Positions 33,591 through 58,106 of a stretch of DNA of 64,000 bases are shown in pieces; positions within the stretch are counted from its first letter, which is position 1; every line of letters starts with the position of its first letter. The stretch spans positions 34,072 to 98,071 of the forward strand of contig CAZLEV010000011.1 in NCBI GenBank assembly GCA_964558645.1, read 5' to 3'. The position numbers were made by a program, and so were the translations under genes. The notes under the pieces were generated by a model. That model was given only the letters and a program-made list of their open reading frames with translations, did no database searches and was not told where the DNA came from. The DNA is from an uncultured archaeon (GTDB taxonomy: Archaea; Asgardarchaeota; Thorarchaeia; Thorarchaeales; Thorarchaeaceae).

Positions 33591-35189
33591 CTAGAAGACC
33601 CCGTAGATATCACCATCTTCATCTAGGCCCATTCCAATTGCCGCAGGTTCTTCGGGCAAGCCGGGCATCAGCATGACATCGCCCATGTACACAATCACAA
33701 ATCCGGCACCAGCACTGACGTCAACATCTCGTACAAAGACCTCAAAGCCGGTCGGGCGTCCTTTAAGTCGCGGATTGTCAGAGATGCTGAACTGCGTCTT
33801 GGCAACACAGATGGGCAACTCACCGTATCCACGCCTCTCCAATGAACGTATCGGGCCGCGCGCATTGTCCGAAAAGATCACCCCATCTGCCCCATACACT
33901 TTCGTGGATAGCTTCTCGATCTTGGTCTTCAGGTCATCTTTGAGATCATATGTCGGTATCACCTTGGCATCTGCGTCGACTGCATCCAATACGGCTGAGG
34001 CCAAATCCTCTCCACCCTTGCTTCCTTCTGCAAATACATCAGAAACCTCCATGGACAAACCTCGCTCATCACAGAATGAACGGAGAGTATCTATCTCCGA
34101 ATCCGTATCGTCCGGAAACCTGTTCAGTGCAATCACTGCAGGCAATCCAAAGTCACGGATATTCTCAACATGCTTCTGTAGATTCGGAAAACCTTTGTCG
34201 AGTTCGCCGTCACCGTGCTCTTTCAGTGCACGGATTGAGGTGACAATGACAACAGCGTTGACATCGAAGTCTCCGGCGCGAGTGACTATATTGAGAAACT
34301 TCTCTGCACCAAGGTCAGCGCCAAAACCTGCTTCGATGACCACATAATCAAAGAGCCTCAATGCGATATCAGTAGCTATGACCGAGTTAGTCCCATGTGC
34401 AATGTTTGCAAATGGTCCTGTGTGAATGATGGCCGGTGTTCCCTCACTGGTCTGTACAAGATTTGGTTTCAGGGCGTCTTTGAGAAGCACACTCATCGCT
34501 CCCTCAGCCTTGAGATCGCCCGCATATACCTCCTTCAAGTTCATGTCACGTGAGAGTAGGATCCGTGAGAGGCGCTTCTGCAAGTCATCATAGTCTTTAG
34601 CCAGAGCAAGAATTGCCATGATCTCGGAGGCGGCCGTAATGACAAACCTGTCTTCTCGAGGAAATCCGTTGGACTTGCCACCTAAGCCCACCATGACGTT
34701 TCTGAGGGCTCGGTCATTCATGTCTATGGCGCGGGGCCAGTAGACTCTCCTGACATCAATACCGAGTTCGTTGTCTTGGTGAACATGATTATCCATCATC
34801 GCTGAGAGAAGATTATGCGCTGCAGTGATTGCCGGGAAATCCGCGGTGAACATCAGATTGATGCGGTCAGAGGGCAGTACCTTGGACTTGCCACCACCAG
34901 TTGCTCCACCCTTGATACCGAATACAGGACCGAGAGAGGGTTCTCGAAGAGTCACAACAGCGTCATGGCCCATTGCATTGAGAGCCATCGAGAGTCCAAT
35001 CGAGGTTGTCGTTTTCCCCTCTCCAGCCGGCGTGGGCGTTGTCGCCGTGACCAGTATCAATTTGCCCTTTCTCTTACCGAGCTTCCTTCGTATATCTAAG
35101 TCAATCTTCGCCATGTACTTCCCATAGGGCTCAAGGAATTCTTCTGAAATGCCAGCTTTTTCAGCCACCTTAGTTATGTGAATCATCAT
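33591..35189 (-). CDS. fhs: Formate-tetrahydrofolate ligase
   Basis: TPAGEGKTT, LREPSLGP, KGGATGGG, GPFANIAHG, EAGFGADLGAEKF and MPGLP motifs. Confidence 0.97.
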   Translation of the reverse strand: MMIHITKVAEKAGISEEFLEPYGKYMAKIDLDIRRKLGKRKGKLILVTATTPTPAGEGKTTTSIGLSMALNAMGHDAVVTLREPSLGPVFGIKGGATGGGKSKVLPSDRINLMFTADFPAITAAHNLLSAMMDNHVHQDNELGIDVRRVYWPRAIDMNDRALRNVMVGLGGKSNGFPREDRFVITAASEIMAILALAKDYDDLQKRLSRILLSRDMNLKEVYAGDLKAEGAMSVLLKDALKPNLVQTSEGTPAIIHTGPFANIAHGTNSVIATDIALRLFDYVVIEAGFGADLGAEKFLNIVTRAGDFDVNAVVIVTSIRALKEHGDGELDKGFPNLQKHVENIRDFGLPAVIALNRFPDDTDSEIDTLRSFCDERGLSMEVSDVFAEGSKGGEDLASAVLDAVDADAKVIPTYDLKDDLKTKIEKLSTKVYGADGVIFSDNARGPIRSLERRGYGELPICVAKTQFSISDNPRLKGRPTGFEVFVRDVDVSAGAGFVIVYMGDVMLMPGLPEEPAAIGMGLDEDGDIYGVF

Positions 35190-49368: not shown

Positions 49369-49917
49369 TCAGCCCGAACCAGACTCTCTGTTATGAACAA
49401 GGGTCGTTCCCAGCTGTTCGAATACATCGAGAATCCCCTCACCAGTCTTAGCTGAAGACTCAAGATAGGGCATTCCGTGAGCATCTGCGAACTCCCTGCC
49501 TTCAGATGGAGCAACAACCCTATCAGGAAGGTCAGTCTTGTTTGCCACCAGCACTAAGGGAATGTCCTTGCCGATTGCTTTTCTGAGTTCGTCAAGCCAC
49601 TCCTCGAGCACGATGAACGTTCTGCGTCGGCTGACATCGTAGACCAGCAGTCCGCCGCTCGAACCTCGGTAGTACATCGGACGAAGAATCTGAAAACGGC
49701 TTTGCCCTGCCACATCCCAGATCTGCAATTTCACAGTGAGGGAATTACCGTGCATGGATGGAATCTCTATATTCTTGACTGCAAACTGGCTTCCGATTGT
49801 TGTCTTGTAGTCTGTTCGAAAGAAACCGTGTGAAAACCTGGTGACAATTGCAGTCTTACCAACTGCACCTTCACCAAGGACAACAATCTTGAACAGATAG
49901 TCATACGAGCTACTCAT
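49369..49917 (-). CDS. Rab-like small GTPase
   Basis: YDYLFKIVVLG, GEGAVGKT, TIG, KLQIWDVAGQ, RF..LRPMYYRG, NKTD and ESSAK motifs. Confidence 0.95.
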   Translation of the reverse strand: MSSSYDYLFKIVVLGEGAVGKTAIVTRFSHGFFRTDYKTTIGSQFAVKNIEIPSMHGNSLTVKLQIWDVAGQSRFQILRPMYYRGSSGGLLVYDVSRRRTFIVLEEWLDELRKAIGKDIPLVLVANKTDLPDRVVAPSEGREFADAHGMPYLESSAKTGEGILDVFEQLGTTLVHNRESGSG

Positions 49918-51050: not shown

Positions 51051-52430
51051 ATGTCTGACAGGCTCTTTGGAACTACGGGCGTGCGTAAGATCTACGGTGA
51101 GGAGTTCTCCCTTGATATGGCCCTTGACCTTGGTCGGGCACTTGGCACATATCTCAAGAGAGGAAACGTGCTTCTTGCCCGAGACGCAAGGACCACCGGC
51201 TCCATGGTTGAAGATGCATTCTCAGCGGGTGTGCTCTCAACAGGAGTCAACGTCCTGCGAGCTGGCGTGGTTCCAACCCCGACTTTGGCATTCCTCACAA
51301 GCTATCTGGATATGGACACAGGAGTTATGGTCACAGCATCTCATAACCCCCCTGAGTACACGGGCATCAAGTTCTGGGGTTCAGACAGCATGGGCTACAC
51401 TCCTGATATTGAAAGACGACTCGAGGAGATATACCATTCACATGACTTCATAGCAGCTGCATGGGACGGGCTGGGAGAGGAGGAATATCTCGATGCACCC
51501 GAGTGGACACACATCGATGAGCTTGTGAAACGGACCGATGTTGCGGCCATTCGTCAGAAGCAATTCAAAGTAGTTGTGGATCCAGGGAATGGAGCGGCGT
51601 GTGTGCTCACACCCTATCTCATGAGAGAGCTGGGTTGCAGCGTCATCACGCTCAACGGTCAGCTGGATGGACACTTCCCCGGTCGAGAGAGCGAACCGGA
51701 TGAATCAACACTTGTTGACCTAGCCAACATGGTCAAATCATCAGGAGCCGACCTTGGCATTGCTCATGACGGGGATGGGGACAGAGTCGTCTTCGTGACT
51801 GAACACGGAGAGGTTGTCAGAGGAGACCGTACTATCGCTCTTCTTGCTCGAGACTCTCTCCAGAGAGAGCAGGGCGGAGTCATCGTCACCACTGTTGACA
51901 GCTCAAAGGTCGTGGATGAGACCGTTGAGCAAGCAGGAGGACGCACAATCAGGACGCCTGTCGGCGACATTCAAGTTGCTGTTAAGATAAGAGAAGAGAA
52001 AGGTCTGTTCGGAGGAGAGGCCTGTGGGGTCTTCATCCATCCAGACTTCCATCTGGCGCCAGAGCCCTTTCTCACTTCCTGCCATGTTCTTGAGATGATG
52101 GCATCACAAGGAAAGGGTTTCGGAGAGCTGATCTCAGAGATACCCGTATATCCCCTCAAGAAATCGAAGCTGCAATGCCCCAACAGCAAGAAACCTGCAG
52201 TGATGGATAGGCTTGCGGAAGTTCTACCAGATGAAATGAATGATATTACTGACATACTTACTGTGGACGGGCTTGGCATATCCCTCAAAGGGGGGTGGCT
52301 CCTTGTCAGGCCGTCAGGTACCGAACCAGTCATCAGAATAACATGCGAAGCCCAGTCTGAAGAGGCCGTTCAAGAGATTCTTGACAGAGCAACAAGTGTC
52401 ATCAGCAACACGATTGCGACGACTAGTTGA
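51051..52430 (+). CDS. glmM: Phosphoglucosamine mutase / phosphohexomutase
   Basis: LFGTTGVR, TASHNP, DGDGDR, GGE and RPSGTEP motifs. Confidence 0.88.
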   Translation: MSDRLFGTTGVRKIYGEEFSLDMALDLGRALGTYLKRGNVLLARDARTTGSMVEDAFSAGVLSTGVNVLRAGVVPTPTLAFLTSYLDMDTGVMVTASHNPPEYTGIKFWGSDSMGYTPDIERRLEEIYHSHDFIAAAWDGLGEEEYLDAPEWTHIDELVKRTDVAAIRQKQFKVVVDPGNGAACVLTPYLMRELGCSVITLNGQLDGHFPGRESEPDESTLVDLANMVKSSGADLGIAHDGDGDRVVFVTEHGEVVRGDRTIALLARDSLQREQGGVIVTTVDSSKVVDETVEQAGGRTIRTPVGDIQVAVKIREEKGLFGGEACGVFIHPDFHLAPEPFLTSCHVLEMMASQGKGFGELISEIPVYPLKKSKLQCPNSKKPAVMDRLAEVLPDEMNDITDILTVDGLGISLKGGWLLVRPSGTEPVIRITCEAQSEEAVQEILDRATSVISNTIATTS

Positions 52431-52522
52431 ACACCAGGTGCGCAAGAGAGCAAATCAGCAAATGCAGACAAGCTTTATAGCACAACAGGGTCTCAGACAC
52501 CTTGAAAACGAGGTCTCATATC

Positions 52523-52933
52523 ATGAGTAATGGCGATGATGATTTCATCAAATCGGAGTTTGAATGGGCTCTGAAGGACCCTACCGAAGAGAAGCTACGA
52601 GGCCTCGGTGAGATTGTCGATACCATCACAAAACGGCTTGTTGAAGCAATAACTGAGCTTCAGAGCGACCTCTACGAGCTTCAGACTGCCGTACAGAGTA
52701 TGGAGTCGAAACTGAACTCGCTGGACTCCCGGGTGGCAACTGGAGGAGTGGCACCATCAGCTACATCTTCTGCATCCTCAGCATCTTCCGCAACAGAAAC
52801 TCCAGATGAACCCATGGCTAGAGCACCGACGCCCAAGCCGGCTCCGGCTGCAGGCCCGGGCGGCATGATGTCTGAACTGAAACAGCTGCTTGCTGCAAGG
52901 AGAAGAAAAGCTGAGGGTGGAGGCGGGGAATAA
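52523..52933 (+). CDS. Coiled-coil protein with a Pro/Ala-rich linker and a C-terminal Ena/VASP FAB-like (WH2-related) motif
   Basis: Clean heptads ITELQSDLYELQTAVQSMESKLNSLDSRV; linker APTPKPAPAAGP; tail GGMMSELKQLLAARRRKA; own TTTATA box at about 52474. Confidence 0.75.
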   Translation: MSNGDDDFIKSEFEWALKDPTEEKLRGLGEIVDTITKRLVEAITELQSDLYELQTAVQSMESKLNSLDSRVATGGVAPSATSSASSASSATETPDEPMARAPTPKPAPAAGPGGMMSELKQLLAARRRKAEGGGGE

Positions 52934-52938
52934 CCCGC

Positions 52939-53613
52939 TCAGATCAAGCGTCGGACATGGTTTCCCGGATAGAACGGGCCTGTATGTTTAAGTAGAGAAA
53001 CGGAGAATGCTTCGGCCCTCTCGCAGGCCGATTGGACTCCTCTCAACCGGGTTCGTGCATCGTAGAATCTCTCGTAGTAACCGCCAGCCTTGCTGGTCTG
53101 GCTCTTGTGACAGCGTAATCCCTCTAATGCGGTATTATAGCTCTCAGTGACACTGACCATCACATTAGGTCGTGAGAGAAGAGTGTTGACCTCCATATGA
53201 TAGATACGACTGATTCGATGCGCTCTCTCGAACCGAGTCACGTGTGATGCCCATTCAGCTGCGTCGGCAACGATCTGCGCGCATGCTACATGGTTTCTAT
53301 TGTAATCCTTCTCGGAGTGGGTGATAATAATGTCTGGACGCCACTCGAGGATTGCTTGAATGATTAGCTTCTCCACACTCCTGTCAACAGCAAAGTCATC
53401 TCGCTCCCCTGTCAGAAGATTACGGATACCTAGTATCTTACATGCCTCCTTCAGCTCTCGGTTTCGAGCTGGACTTCCTGTGAGGCACAACAGATCCACG
53501 TCTACTCCCTGACTGCTATGAGACGCTATCGTTCCACCGGCACCCAAGCATTCATCATCGGGATGCGCAGTAACAACGAGAATTGAGCCATCGTCAGAGG
53601 GATTCATGGTCAT
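52939..53613 (-). CDS. bshB: PIG-L family deacetylase (BshB-like)
   Basis: AHPDDE, RPDIIITH, HKSQ, RG and AEAF motifs; divergent from bshA. Confidence 0.8.
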   Translation of the reverse strand: MTMNPSDDGSILVVTAHPDDECLGAGGTIASHSSQGVDVDLLCLTGSPARNRELKEACKILGIRNLLTGERDDFAVDRSVEKLIIQAILEWRPDIIITHSEKDYNRNHVACAQIVADAAEWASHVTRFERAHRISRIYHMEVNTLLSRPNVMVSVTESYNTALEGLRCHKSQTSKAGGYYERFYDARTRLRGVQSACERAEAFSVSLLKHTGPFYPGNHVRRLI

Positions 53614-53696
53614 CTCAGACCCAGTTCTACTAATCAAGCTTTGGCCTGACCATTTGTCTTAAAACCCCCCGTTTGCTGTTCAGTACAGTGACCAGC

Positions 53697-54857
53697 ATGA
53701 GGATAGGAGTCAATCTATATGCCTCAGTGGGCGGCTCAGGCTACCTCGCGACGCGCTTGGGACAGCACCTTGCAGACCGTGGCCACGAGATTCATTTCAT
53801 CACCTACCAGAGGCCGTTTAGCCTGATGTGGGAGCAAGCACGAGGTGTCTACGTTGACCTCGTGGACAGTTTTGATTATCCGCTCTTCAAGTCAACTGGA
53901 ACCCCCTACACCATGACCCTTACATCAAAGATTGTAAAAGTGGCTCGCGATTCCAAACTCAATCTCATCCACTCGCACTATGCAATCCCTCATGCTATGG
54001 CCGCATACATGGCAAGAGAGATCATCGGTATCCCCTATGTGGTAACACTACACGGTTCAGATGTCCACACCCTTGGACTCGATCCTGCATATCGCCCCGT
54101 TGTTAAGCACACGGTAGAAGAAGCAGATGGTGTCACAGCAGTTTCAGAGTTCCTCCAGAAGAAGGCCTATGAGGAACTCGGCATCGAAAGGGAGATTCAT
54201 GTCGTCCCTAACTTCATCGATGTTCAAAGATTCACTCCCATGGAGGGAGTGCGACTCACAGTGGAGAGCGGCTGTGTGTCTCTTCGCAGATCAGAGGAAC
54301 CCGAAGATCTTCATCCAGACGAGATGGTGCTGTTGCATGCATCGAACTTCCGTCAAGTGAAGAGAGTGGTCGAGCTCGTAGAGATCATGAGGATCGTAGT
54401 CGACCACTATCCTGATACGCGGCTAGTGATTGCAGGGGATGGACCCACCCGCATGCATGTTGAGCGACGAATAGAGGCCCTTGACCTCTGCCAGAATGTG
54501 CATCTCTTGGGAGTGAAGAGCAACATGAGAGAGATCATGTGTTCATCAGATATCTTTCTGCTCAATTCTACCTTAGAGGGCATGCCACTGGTCCTTTTGG
54601 AGGCTATGGCATCCGAACTACCAGTTATCACGACACCCGCAGGAGGCATACCAGAGCTTGTACGCCCAGGGAAGGACGGTATTGTCACGAAGGGCTTCGA
54701 GAAGGAAGAGTTTGCGGGTGCAATCCTAGAGTTGATAGAACATGATGCCCGAAGAAAAGAACTGGGCAAGGCGGGACGAAAGAGAGTTGTTGAGCAGTAC
54801 TCAGCTGAGAAGGTTGTGCCCATGTATGAGAGAGTCTTTGATAGAGCAGTGGAATGA
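53697..54857 (+). CDS. bshA: N-acetyl-alpha-D-glucosaminyl L-malate synthase (GT4)
   Basis: GGSG..AT.LG..LA.RGHEIHFITY, YPLF, HSHYAIPHA, VTLHGSD and SNFRQVKR. Confidence 0.9.
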   Translation: MRIGVNLYASVGGSGYLATRLGQHLADRGHEIHFITYQRPFSLMWEQARGVYVDLVDSFDYPLFKSTGTPYTMTLTSKIVKVARDSKLNLIHSHYAIPHAMAAYMAREIIGIPYVVTLHGSDVHTLGLDPAYRPVVKHTVEEADGVTAVSEFLQKKAYEELGIEREIHVVPNFIDVQRFTPMEGVRLTVESGCVSLRRSEEPEDLHPDEMVLLHASNFRQVKRVVELVEIMRIVVDHYPDTRLVIAGDGPTRMHVERRIEALDLCQNVHLLGVKSNMREIMCSSDIFLLNSTLEGMPLVLLEAMASELPVITTPAGGIPELVRPGKDGIVTKGFEKEEFAGAILELIEHDARRKELGKAGRKRVVEQYSAEKVVPMYERVFDRAVE

Positions 54858-56593
54858 TAGAACGGAGATGCCAACTTTTGAGAGAGAGCGTAGCTGAAGT
54901 CTATAAAGACTACATCTGGAAAGAGGAAATGCAGGATGCCGCCCAGTATCTCTATAGTTGCCCGCCAGTCTATTTCGGCGGTCTCAAGGAGAGAGTAGGA
55001 AGACTCCGAGAGGAATACTTAGAGACGCACTGGTTCACTGACGAACGAATGCAGATACTTGAGAACACCCTGGAAAGGACAAGTCGCAACCTGGGTGCTC
55101 TAACACCAGCAGTTAGGAGTAGAATCTCAGAGCTTCGACATGGAGCCATAGAAGGAGCACACCAGAGCATTGCCTTCGGCGGCCCATGCTATGTTCTGAA
55201 CAAGGCAGCAACAGCATCGATACTTGCAGATGTCACGTCTGATGATGATATTCGCGTAGCCGCGTATTTCTTCGTTGCAGACTATGATGAGGTCCAGGCT
55301 GAACTGATCAACACAAGGACCCCACTGCTGGGATCTTCAGGCAATCTGCTCAGTATTCCGGTTCCCAAGGAGTTCAAGCATTCGCCCGTCAGTGTTCTAC
55401 CCCTTCCTGAGCATACTTGGTACGAAGAGGCAGAAGAGAGTATCCGGATGGGGTACAGACCGATGATCAAAGACCTCGACAACAGGGCGCGCATCATATA
55501 CGAAGAGAGACTCGAGCAGATTCTCTCCATAACAAGATGGAGTTTCGTAAACTCAGACACACTGGGGGAATGGGCGCGACGAATCCTAGCCCGTCTGTTC
55601 AATGTCGAGGGAAACTTGGGAATACCAATTGTCGCGTATTCAGACCCTCAGATACGGAAGCTGGCAACTCTTGGAATGGAATTCCTTCTGAAGAAACAGA
55701 ACCGAGAGAGATTCTTAGAGGCCCAGGATCAAGCAACCGACAGAATCATCGAACTAGGTCTGGAGCCCGGCTCGGGGAGAAGAGATCGCTCCTACGTTCC
55801 GTTTCTATACGAGTGTCCGGAGAAAGGCTGCAACAGGAGTAGATTCGAACTGCAGTATTATGCCCGGGAAGACACTGCGACGCTGTCAGGTAGGTGCCCG
55901 TCATGCCATCAGTACTTCACAATCGAAGTTTCAGCAGATAATCCTGACTTGAGTGACCATGCCGACTACCTATCTCCTCGTGTAGACTCGCGGCAGTTCA
56001 TTGTGGACATGATGATTCCCACTATGTGCCATATTGGAGGGCCAGGTGAGACCGCCTATTACGCCCAGGTGATTCCCGCTGCCGACGCTCTAGACATCCC
56101 ATTCCCGGAGTTTGTGAAGTATCCACGGCTCTTCTTCAACACACCATGGAGTGAAGCTCTGGCAAACCAGTTGGAGAACAGGGGTGAGCCGGTCTTGCAT
56201 GGTCGCACGCTCTTCAAACTGCTGGGGAAGTCAAGTGCAGCCAGAAGAAAAGAGAACTATGATGAGATGAACTCCGCCATCAAGAAACTGGGCAACCATA
56301 TCAGAGACCGGTACGATGTCATAGTGAAGAGGGTGGCGGAGATAGAGAAGCAGAGAGAAAACTCAAGCGGTGAAGAAGACGAGGAACTTCAAGGTATCAA
56401 GTTTGACCTCGAAATGTACCTCAGCTGGGCATATGGGCGATATTCTGCAGAGAAGTCCGTGCAGGAGTCCTCTTGGTCCTGGATAGAGTGGGCAATAAAC
56501 TCTGGACTGGCGGATCTGTTCGGTCCTTACGAGAGAAGCTATGTTGAGCAACTTAAGAATGGAGCCACGATGTGGATAAACTTCATGACATAG
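54854..56593 (+). CDS. bshC: Bacillithiol biosynthesis BshC-like protein
   Basis: GAHQ..FGGP.Y.LNKA, D.DE, SPRV..R, GGPGETAYYAQV and QE motifs; ATGA overlap with bshA. Confidence 0.85.
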   Translation: MIERRCQLLRESVAEVYKDYIWKEEMQDAAQYLYSCPPVYFGGLKERVGRLREEYLETHWFTDERMQILENTLERTSRNLGALTPAVRSRISELRHGAIEGAHQSIAFGGPCYVLNKAATASILADVTSDDDIRVAAYFFVADYDEVQAELINTRTPLLGSSGNLLSIPVPKEFKHSPVSVLPLPEHTWYEEAEESIRMGYRPMIKDLDNRARIIYEERLEQILSITRWSFVNSDTLGEWARRILARLFNVEGNLGIPIVAYSDPQIRKLATLGMEFLLKKQNRERFLEAQDQATDRIIELGLEPGSGRRDRSYVPFLYECPEKGCNRSRFELQYYAREDTATLSGRCPSCHQYFTIEVSADNPDLSDHADYLSPRVDSRQFIVDMMIPTMCHIGGPGETAYYAQVIPAADALDIPFPEFVKYPRLFFNTPWSEALANQLENRGEPVLHGRTLFKLLGKSSAARRKENYDEMNSAIKKLGNHIRDRYDVIVKRVAEIEKQRENSSGEEDEELQGIKFDLEMYLSWAYGRYSAEKSVQESSWSWIEWAINSGLADLFGPYERSYVEQLKNGATMWINFMT

Positions 56594-56640: not shown

Positions 56641-57909
56641 TTAGAGTTCTTCCGAGAGAAGCCGTCCGAGGCGTTCCATCCCCTCAGAGATGACCTCTGG
56701 TCTTGCATAGCAGAATCCTAATCGCATAGTATTGGCCTGAGGGACCGATGGCTTCAACTCGTTCCCGTTCTCAGTTAGAGAGTAGCCCGTGATTGGATAG
56801 AATGGTCCGCCGGGCACATAGAGAACTTCGTTTGGCAATGCAACTTCTTGCATGAACCTACTACTGTTGAAGTCCTTCTTCTCGCTCTCCCACCAGATGA
56901 AGAAGCCTCCGGTTGGGTCCGTCCTCTTGCCACCAGGGAAAGACTCGTCCATTGCCTTGGCCATCGCCAAATAGCGTTCCTTGTACTTGGGGACAATCTC
57001 CTTCATCGCCACATCGATGTAGTTCCTGTAGTATTCGTCCAGTATGCGTTGTATGAGTGTTGAGGTACATAGGTCCAAGTAGCCCTTGTCTTTGAGAACC
57101 TGCTCACGCAGATTTGGAGGCATAATCGAGTATCCAACTCGTAGAACAGCAGCCTCTTTGCTAGTGGTCCCAAGATACGCAACACGACGATTCTCTTTGT
57201 CAAGAGTCTTGATTGGCGGCGGGTTCTTCTTGAACTGAATCTCTGCATATGCAGAGTCCTCAACTAGGAGAGTATTGTGATTCTCGCATATGTCAAAGAG
57301 GGCCTGACGGCGTTTCATAGGAAGAGTCGTTCCCTTTGGATTATCGGAGTCCGGCACCACATAGACAATGTCAGGCAGCTTTCCGAACTTCATCTTAGAC
57401 ACATGGATTGCCTTGTCCACATACTCAGGTATGATTCCATCGAGATCCGTTGGGACGGTTATGATTCTAGCCCCGAGCTTGACCGCAGGAACAAGAAAAC
57501 CGAGATATGCAGGCGCGGTGGTCACGATCACATCACCGGGGTCAATCATCGTATCAAGAATCGCATAGATGGCCTGCTGGGAACCATTCGTCACGGATAC
57601 GCACTCATACTCCTCCTCGCAGTCTATCGGTATATTCCTGACATCGTGCAGGCGCTTGGCCAGAGTCTTGAGGAACCAAGTCTGGCCGCCTGTAGGCCCA
57701 TAGTTGAAATCTTCCAGTGCAAGCTTGGAGTCTTCTTTGTAGCGCTCAGAGAGATCGGCCATTATCTTCGCGAAGATATCTGTCGGGATGATACCAGGTT
57801 TCCCGCCTGCGAAGTAGTAATCAACCTTGTACTTCAAGAGGGCACGGATCTGAGACTCTTCAATAAAAGAGGTCCAGGCTGCAAAATTATACCCGTCTGG
57901 ATTGGTCAT
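56641..57909 (-). CDS. PLP-dependent class I aminotransferase (LysN/MocR-type)
   Basis: FAGGKP, YGPTGG, NGSQQA, NPKG, EDSAY, TSK, LRVG, PTGGFF and MRL motifs; GGAGG RBS before ATG 57909. Confidence 0.9.
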   Translation of the reverse strand: MTNPDGYNFAAWTSFIEESQIRALLKYKVDYYFAGGKPGIIPTDIFAKIMADLSERYKEDSKLALEDFNYGPTGGQTWFLKTLAKRLHDVRNIPIDCEEEYECVSVTNGSQQAIYAILDTMIDPGDVIVTTAPAYLGFLVPAVKLGARIITVPTDLDGIIPEYVDKAIHVSKMKFGKLPDIVYVVPDSDNPKGTTLPMKRRQALFDICENHNTLLVEDSAYAEIQFKKNPPPIKTLDKENRRVAYLGTTSKEAAVLRVGYSIMPPNLREQVLKDKGYLDLCTSTLIQRILDEYYRNYIDVAMKEIVPKYKERYLAMAKAMDESFPGGKRTDPTGGFFIWWESEKKDFNSSRFMQEVALPNEVLYVPGGPFYPITGYSLTENGNELKPSVPQANTMRLGFCYARPEVISEGMERLGRLLSEEL

Positions 57910-58106
57910 TCGCATTCCTCCAAGAGACAGAATGTCGGCGTGAAGCAAATCGCCGTCAGCGTTATGTACAACTCTGTACATTTGCAGGAACATCATAACA
58001 CGGTTCGCACTTATCTGTTTCTTTCATTTCACTCATCTGAATGCTCGAAATAGCTCGACAGTGTACATTCTTGTGCACAGCAGCAAAAGGATTCCTGTCT
58101 TCCCAA

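Follow-up and report, generated by a model that had tools for sequence, protein, structure and literature searches.

Bacillithiol, the low-molecular-weight thiol of Bacillus, Staphylococcus, Deinococcus and Thermus, is assembled in three steps, in which the glycosyltransferase BshA joins UDP-N-acetylglucosamine (UDP-GlcNAc) and malate, BshB removes the acetyl group and BshC adds cysteine; the mycothiol of Actinobacteria is made by the enzymes MshA to MshD, of which MshC binds cysteine via an active-site zinc. Here, we describe a locus that probably encodes an archaeal version of the three steps of a bacillithiol-type thiol pathway, located in a 64,000-nucleotide stretch (hereafter, the window) of the genome of an uncultured Thorarchaeaceae archaeon (positions 34,072 to 98,071, forward strand, of contig CAZLEV010000011.1 in GenBank assembly GCA_964558645.1). 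The host metagenome-assembled genome (MAG) belongs to the Asgard archaea, comprises 3.63 Mb and is 92.8% complete, with an estimated contamination of 6.3%, and the contig within which the cluster lies is at least 98 kb long. An earlier note on this DNA, made from the sequence without database searches, had placed a PIG-L deacetylase gene, bshA, a bshC-like gene and glmM in this region, and all these open reading frames (ORFs) were confirmed at the same places by reading and by profile scores.

The homology of these genes is not new, having been preceded by NCBI annotation, in which many of the proteins are named "bacillithiol biosynthesis BshC", and by a 2020 review, in which Rawat and Maupin-Furlow listed 39 archaeal InterPro matches each for BshA and BshC, mostly from Asgard archaea (PMC7278568); the general picture is unchanged. 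Hammerstad et al. (2025), using BLAST thresholds, reported no archaea with the complete pathway in RefSeq (PMC12719100), and beyond these two papers our literature search found none tying bacillithiol to Thorarchaeota, Bathyarchaeia or Heimdall lineages. The present analysis defines a clade of archaeal-type BshC with a Cys knuckle, traces it through Asgard lineages and Bathyarchaeia, describes thiol-transferase and thioredoxin-fold genes beside the Bathyarchaeia cluster, documents a clade-wide change in a BshA motif and corrects the likely start of bshC.

Family assignment of BshA, the BshC-like protein and the deacetylase

The placement of BshA rests on an equivalog cut-off and on the ranking of its matches in the PDB. 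The protein scored 369.6 bits against the TIGR03999 equivalog model (cut-off 273.7), with residues 9-393 aligned to profile positions 1-374 of 375, and over its whole length matched 2JJM, 3MBO and 5D00, solved structures of BshA from B. anthracis and B. subtilis, with E-values from 6e-71 to 2e-69. The next enzyme of glycosyltransferase family 4 (GT4), the phosphatidylinositol mannosyltransferase PimB', followed at 2e-21, about 50 orders of magnitude worse, and an inositol-3-phosphate glycosyltransferase of the MshA type (7QSG) at 9e-13. This ranking places BshA closer to the solved BshA structures than to other GT4 enzymes; a grouping with unrelated GT4 enzymes was among the outcomes that the earlier note had named as speaking against its proposal. 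The motifs SVGGSG, HYAIPHA, TLHGSD, NFID and SNFRxVKR are kept, and among the functional residues of the S. aureus enzyme (H118, T120, N171, K209, E280 within ESFG, and E288; PMC10361700) the His, the Asn, the Lys and both Glu are retained, with Thr replaced by Ser (in TLHGSD).

In bacterial BshA, the EX7E motif opens with the sugar-contacting residues ESFG. At this site, all 39 Thorarchaeota sequences have EGMP, 27 of the 30 from Bathyarchaeia have ESAP (Glu and Pro in 30/30) and the Asgard family that we designate f12 has EGAP; ESFG is retained in Asgard families f5, f14, f26 and f27. A single branch, supported at 99% in the Shimodaira-Hasegawa-like approximate likelihood ratio test (SH-aLRT), sets the Pro-variant sequences apart from the others. 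Owing to the change from ESFG to EGMP, the product may be a variant; a PDB search with the EX7E segment alone returned nothing on the donor sugar.

The BshC-like protein matched PF10079 (Rossmann-like_BshC) over residues 52-420 with 57.5 bits (gathering threshold 27). An AlphaFold2 model built on 28 homologues reached a predicted local distance difference test score (pLDDT) of 94.2 and a predicted template modelling score (pTM) of 0.93, and contains the BshC fold, a Rossmann core with a C-terminal helical domain. Its top Foldseek match was B. subtilis BshC (4WBD; E-value 5.4e-20, template modelling (TM) scores 0.68/0.72 across the full length in about 600 aligned columns, 16% identity), followed by a class I lysyl-tRNA synthetase. 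Five residues (Q104, K117, D145, R330 and G396) are common to all archaeal-type sequences, the bacterial-type sequences of family f27 and 36 bacterial BshC sequences, and four others (G110, E150, E399 and Y402) are common to the same groups bar one or two sequences each.

Other positions set the archaeal-type proteins apart. C321 and C348 are present in 36/36 aligned archaeal-type sequences and C351 in 34/36, and the variable C326 is found in Thorarchaeota and Bathyarchaeia; these cysteines are missing from 35 of the 36 bacterial representatives and from the f27 copies. They form two Cys knuckles that surround the universally invariant R330, which we read as a zinc-ribbon-like insert. R376 and D378 are likewise specific to the archaeal type, with N and V/A at these positions in bacteria. 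When 1.84 billion cluster representatives were searched, 46 clusters were recovered at E-values of 1e-30 or below, followed by a gap, and ordinary BshC-length proteins appeared only at about 1e-10 to 1e-6. The phylogeny against bacterial sequences that the earlier note had suggested, here a tree of 78 BshC sequences, recovered the archaeal-type clade apart from the bacterial representatives, with 98-100% SH-aLRT support and a long branch between the two. This clade takes in the window protein, whose nearest named relatives are from Candidatus Thorarchaeota MAGs, together with Bathyarchaeia and clusters named Heimdallarchaeota, Ranarchaeia and Promethearchaeota.

The deacetylase is the only PIG-L copy in the host genome. 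Its closest solved relative is 2IXD, which we take to be B. cereus BC1534, a BshB, although in the structure-database search it was about equally close to BshB-type and archaeal diacetylchitobiose deacetylases. The His-Asp...His zinc ligands are kept, with AHPDD and the histidine of ...NH aligned to H12/D15/H113 of 2IXD (numbering from PMC5790435). The canonical DxHxDH motif, DRHPDH in bacteria, is changed to DYNxNH in nearly all Thorarchaeota copies compared and reads DYHxEH or DYHxDH in Bathyarchaeia.

Co-occurrence and gene order in Asgard archaea and Bathyarchaeia

Among 301 sampled Asgard genomes, a PF10079 match was found in 156 and a BshA above cut-off in 134, and the two proteins co-occur family by family: BshA and BshC were detected, respectively, in 71 and 69 of the 76 genomes of family f1, in 27 and 27 of 28 in f5 and in 17 and 17 of 19 in f12, and family f9 is nearly negative for both (2/68 and 1/68). 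The pathway had been described in the earlier note as unusual for archaea, a description that does not hold when about half of the Asgard genomes and many Bathyarchaeia have it.

In all 43 Thorarchaeota loci that were long enough, the genes follow the order hydrolase, glmM, coiled-coil ORF, PIG-L deacetylase, bshA, bshC and aminotransferase, an arrangement that is far beyond chance given its recurrence in so many loci. The order differs in some 37 Bathyarchaeia loci, where PIG-L, Amidohydro_2 and bshC are followed on the opposite strand by a thioredoxin-fold gene (with WCGDC), bshA and a gene of the DinB_2/mycothiol-S-transferase type, the last of which is present in at least 27 loci and the thioredoxin-fold gene in about half. 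Five other Asgard families were examined; in four of them the three genes lie together in yet other orders, and in the fifth only bshA and bshC are adjacent. Overall, clusters of the three genes, differently ordered, occur in Bathyarchaeia and in at least six Asgard families. The direct observations are of homology, of fold, of conserved residues, of co-occurrence and of a clustering that recurs independently. This clustering through rearrangements in two phyla is the strongest argument for joint action of the three genes, and the DinB and thioredoxin-fold neighbours in Bathyarchaeia point to thiol chemistry, such that conserved clustering in different orders, taken with these thiol-type neighbours, argues for one low-molecular-weight-thiol pathway.

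Other neighbours were set aside. The gene glmM is kept upstream in Thorarchaeota loci and is not near bshC in Bathyarchaeia or the other Asgard families; its proximity, which the earlier note had pointed out, is real, but its restriction to Thorarchaeota makes it weak evidence, and we rejected it as general evidence for the pathway. Transglutaminase-like, HAD, metallophosphoesterase and ribosome-biogenesis genes next to the clusters of other Asgard families were dismissed as not common between lineages. At the one f12 locus examined, a transglutaminase-like gene (cysteine-protease fold; L109:4997-6217, + strand) overlaps the start of bshC by 4 nt.

Proposed pathway and competing explanations

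It is probable that the organism produces bacillithiol, or a compound close to it, for use as a small protective thiol; the substrates (malate, cysteine and the sugar donor), what the product is chemically and what it does in the cell are inferred as follows. BshA, a retaining GT4 enzyme, would transfer an N-acetylhexosamine to L-malate from a UDP-sugar donor, most likely UDP-GlcNAc, and the divergently transcribed PIG-L zinc deacetylase would take off the acetyl group. The divergent BshC, with its class I aminoacyl-tRNA-synthetase-like Rossmann fold and Cys-knuckle insert, and presumably co-transcribed with bshA, would then add cysteine to the free amine. GlmM would supply glucosamine-1-phosphate for UDP-GlcNAc. 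As a low-molecular-weight thiol, this product (bacillithiol or something very similar) would be used by DinB-type transferases in S-conjugation and would contribute to thiol protection and buffering.

Several results weigh against this scheme. The BshC-like protein scored 60.7 bits against TIGR03998, far from the cut-off of 265.8, and by this model is to be classed as a divergent subfamily member and not as an equivalog. Reconstitution of the BshC reaction in vitro has not been achieved with any enzyme, bacterial ones included (PMC5790435), so that "adds cysteine" is inherited from Bacillus genetics. The deacetylase reached neither the BshB1 cut-off (82.4 against 182.5 bits) nor that of BshB2 (70.2 against 195.3 bits; TIGR04001 and TIGR04000 tested), and the Thorarchaeota enzymes have Asn in place of the first His of the PIG-L HPDH motif; in BshA, Pro replaces the Gly of ESFG in Thorarchaeota, Bathyarchaeia and f12. 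In the host genome, at a completeness (92.8%) that makes the missing enzymes no proof of absence, there was no Bdr/YpdA over cut-off (best TIGR04018 match 68.7 against 339.9 bits, the two best matches carrying a thioredoxin reductase-type CxxC) and no match to BrxA/B or BrxC (PF06491, TIGR04019). Bacillithiol has been detected in no archaeon (PMC7278568), in agreement with the earlier note, which knew of no chemical demonstration in Asgards. That note had proposed bacillithiol or a variant as a redox buffer: the pathway itself is supported by every sequence, fold and synteny test, and the buffering role stays conjectural with the recycling enzymes Bdr/YpdA, BrxA/B and BrxC not found.

Possible substitutes for these enzymes in the host genome are three DinB_2 genes, a Thioredoxin_9 homologue, which could be a monothiol redoxin, and a CoADR/Nox-like oxidoreductase, although nothing links them to the cluster. 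In favour of the scheme, no gamma-glutamylcysteine ligase of the GCS2 type was found in this genome, which has the single PIG-L gene and the three DinB_2 genes. Two salt-lake metatranscriptome runs from two studies each yielded two 151-nt contigs with 99-100% identity to bshA and bshC; given that RNA libraries can carry DNA, these are a weak hint only and were not counted as evidence of expression.

The features that depart most from the bacterial enzymes invite the question of whether the same pathway logic leads to a structural variant, with galactosamine (the 4-epimer) or another altered hexosamine core, or with another hydroxy-acid aglycone, in the clade of Thorarchaeota, Bathyarchaeia and f12. 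The change from ESFG to EGMP, ESAP or EGAP spans this whole clade on its single well-supported branch, and the partners are atypical too, with the Cys knuckle of BshC and the DYNxNH of the deacetylase. The NmW/NmY capsule polymerases, which are distantly related, are reported to switch donor preference between glucose and galactose depending on whether Gly or Pro occupies this site, but the enzyme behind this analogy has a reported identity of only 17% to BshA (PMC10361700). Against a variant, BshA still lies about 96 bits over its equivalog cut-off, the acceptor-setting loops of its N-domain (SVGGSG, HYAIPHA and TLHGSD) hardly differ from their counterparts in B. anthracis BshA, and the glmM adjacency in Thorarchaeota fits a GlcNAc donor; we regard such a product as unlikely, if the most credible of the alternatives. 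Slightly less likely again is a distinct archaeal thiol pathway of Thorarchaeota, Bathyarchaeia and some other Asgard archaea with a product that is not bacillithiol, in which the Pro in EX7E of BshA would alter the sugar donor and zinc held by the Cys knuckle of BshC would select or activate cysteine as in CysRS and MshC. If true, the product would be new among the low-molecular-weight thiols of archaea, and the enzyme would lend itself to working out the BshC reaction.

A more radical departure would be a BshC-like enzyme that ligates something other than cysteine, so that the cluster makes a non-thiol aminosugar-malate conjugate, for example a compatible solute or cofactor precursor. The distance of this protein from characterised BshC (16% identity to 4WBD and the TIGR03998 shortfall), its type-specific R376 and D378, the obscurity of BshC chemistry itself (PMC5790435) and the failure to find bacillithiol-recycling enzymes in the host genome would all fit. 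The retention of the family-wide invariant residues, the DinB-type thiol S-transferase and CxxC thioredoxin-fold genes within Bathyarchaeia clusters and the tight co-occurrence with an equivalog-grade BshA make this improbable. Still further removed is the notion that the GT4 enzyme and PIG-L act on a lipid or glycan, in a PIG-A/PIG-L-like synthesis of glucosaminyl-archaetidylinositol, with the BshC-like gene a mere neighbour. PIG-A-type enzymes are also GT4 members, PIG-L is the namesake of the deacetylase family and some archaea make glucosaminyl-archaetidylinositol, but BshA matches soluble BshA structures at 1e-71 and PimB' only at 1e-21, passes its equivalog cut-off, and is accompanied, together with the deacetylase, by the BshC-like gene through several rearrangements in two phyla, so that we give this notion hardly any credence. 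Finally, as bacillithiol is regarded as a bacterial trait and the MAG carries some estimated contamination, the cluster might be bacterial DNA mis-binned in an archaeal genome; the archaeal-type glmM and the Ras-family GTPase on the same long contig speak against this, and it is effectively refuted by the same context in 43 independent Thorarchaeota assemblies and by the position of BshC in the archaeal-type clade.

With synthesis of bacillithiol or a close analogue as the preferred reading, activity of the clusters would make a bacillithiol-type thiol the principal one dedicated to redox and detoxification in two lineages abundant in sediments (Asgard archaea, Thorarchaeota among them, and Bathyarchaeia), which would correct the 2025 survey in which no archaea in RefSeq had the pathway (PMC12719100). 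The archaeal-type BshC, with a Cys knuckle around an invariant Arg, offers a second, very different family for studying the BshC reaction.

Layout of the locus and comparison with known systems

The features of the window and of the loci used for comparison are collected in Table 1.

Table 1. Coordinates of the bacillithiol-type locus, its neighbours and comparison loci (window positions unless a locus is named)
Feature	Position	Strand	Evidence or remark
Ras-family small GTPase	49369-49917	-	PF00071, 163 bits
Alpha/beta hydrolase	beside glmM	-	first gene of the conserved Thorarchaeota block
Archaeal phosphoglucosamine mutase, glmM	51051-52430 (ATG 51051)	+	TIGR03990 Arch_GlmM, 517 bits against cut-off 439
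Small coiled-coil, low-complexity ORF, 136-143 aa	52502/52523-52933	+	no Pfam/NCBIfam match
PIG-L/LmbE-family zinc deacetylase, BshB-like	52939-53613/53637	-	PF02585, 80.7 bits
Divergent deacetylase/bshA spacer, 83 bp	53614-53696	.	between ATG 53613 and ATG 53697
bshA, predicted GT4 N-acetylhexosaminyl-malate synthase	53697-54857	+	TIGR03999, 369.6 bits
Archaeal-type bshC, putative cysteine-adding enzyme	54854 or 54878 to 56593	+	PF10079, 57.5 bits
Cys-knuckle (zinc-ribbon-like) insert of BshC	55814-55906	+	C321, C326, C348 and C351 flanking R330
Class I/II aminotransferase, convergent on bshC	56641-57996	-	PF00155, 80.9 bits
Thioredoxin_9 homologue	L105 (G000:C2:154946-155317)	-	89.9 bits; single Cys (RCNDT) against WCGDC in the Bathyarchaeia cluster protein
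Example of extended Bathyarchaeia cluster	L069:4245-9998 (loci L065-L101)		one of about 37 loci of this kind
Bacterial-type bshC-bshB-bshA operon	L111:6287-9684 (Asgard family f27, G123)		synteny

The spacer between the divergent deacetylase and bshA genes, put at about 83 bp in the earlier note, is exactly that length with the two ATG starts listed, and a TTAAAA element lies about 35 nt 5' of the bshA ATG within it; promoters for both directions are presumably located here. That note had also described bshA and bshC as translationally coupled. The two genes certainly form a tightly linked, co-directional pair, and an ATGA at 54854-54857 does overlap the end of bshA, but the functional start of bshC is probably not at this 4-nt overlap. 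In the Thorarchaeota comparison, the overlapping ATG is kept only in a relative of the same genus (L023), whereas bshC of the other Thorarchaeota starts 8-30 nt past the bshA stop, a position equivalent to TTG 54878 here. Because of this position in the relatives, a GGAG at 54864 (11 nt upstream of the TTG), a 571-aa product predicted by gene callers and a low pLDDT for residues 1-8, which also lie outside the alignment, TTG 54878 is more likely to be the true start than the overlapping ATG.

As had been noted, glmM lies one gene away from the deacetylase, with the single coiled-coil ORF intervening. This ORF (the 52523 start in Table 1) is also Ser/Ala/Pro-rich, is found with 42-93% identity at the same place in Thorarchaeota loci, has no counterpart in clusters elsewhere and probably lies outside the pathway. 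Within the Thorarchaeota block, no gene is better conserved than the aminotransferase that follows bshC, which is present in nearly all loci with 68-91% identity (about 50% for BshC); the clusters of other lineages lack it, and it has no evident role in the pathway. About 3 kb upstream of the cluster is the Ras-family GTPase, a typical eukaryote-like signature protein of Asgard archaea, the proximity of which favours an archaeal origin of the contig.

The locus shares its three enzyme families and their logical order with bacillithiol synthesis in Bacillus, Staphylococcus, Deinococcus and Thermus, and has an equivalog-grade BshA, an archaeal BshC fold that matches 4WBD and a deacetylase with its zinc ligands kept; DinB-family S-transferases are present in the host genome and adjoin the cluster in Bathyarchaeia. 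Unlike the bacterial systems, the archaeal BshC belongs to a deeply separated clade far below the equivalog cut-off and carries a knuckle of three to four Cys, the window deacetylase lies below the BshB cut-offs with DYNxNH, and the window BshA has EGMP for ESFG. No Bdr, BrxA/B or BrxC was found in the host genome, and all three genes are clustered, whereas bshC of B. subtilis lies apart from bshA-bshB1.

With the mycothiol synthesis of Actinobacteria, the locus shares a GT4 glycosyltransferase, a PIG-L deacetylase and a predicted cysteine ligation by a class I aminoacyl-tRNA-synthetase-like enzyme. In contrast to that pathway, no MshD-like acetyltransferase or inositol-phosphate step is apparent, the MshA, MshB and Mca models scored 61, 34 and 31 bits, far under the Bsh models, and MshC (3C8Z) was a marginal fold match to the BshC-like model, at rank 37.

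The bshC-bshB-bshA operon of Asgard family f27 provides a comparison within the phylum. Its BshC, unlike that of the window, is of the bacterial type, scoring about 275 bits on PF10079, nesting among the bacterial representatives and lacking the Cys knuckle, and the operon seems to have been acquired from bacteria separately and more recently; like the window locus, it clusters the three same predicted functions in an Asgard genome.

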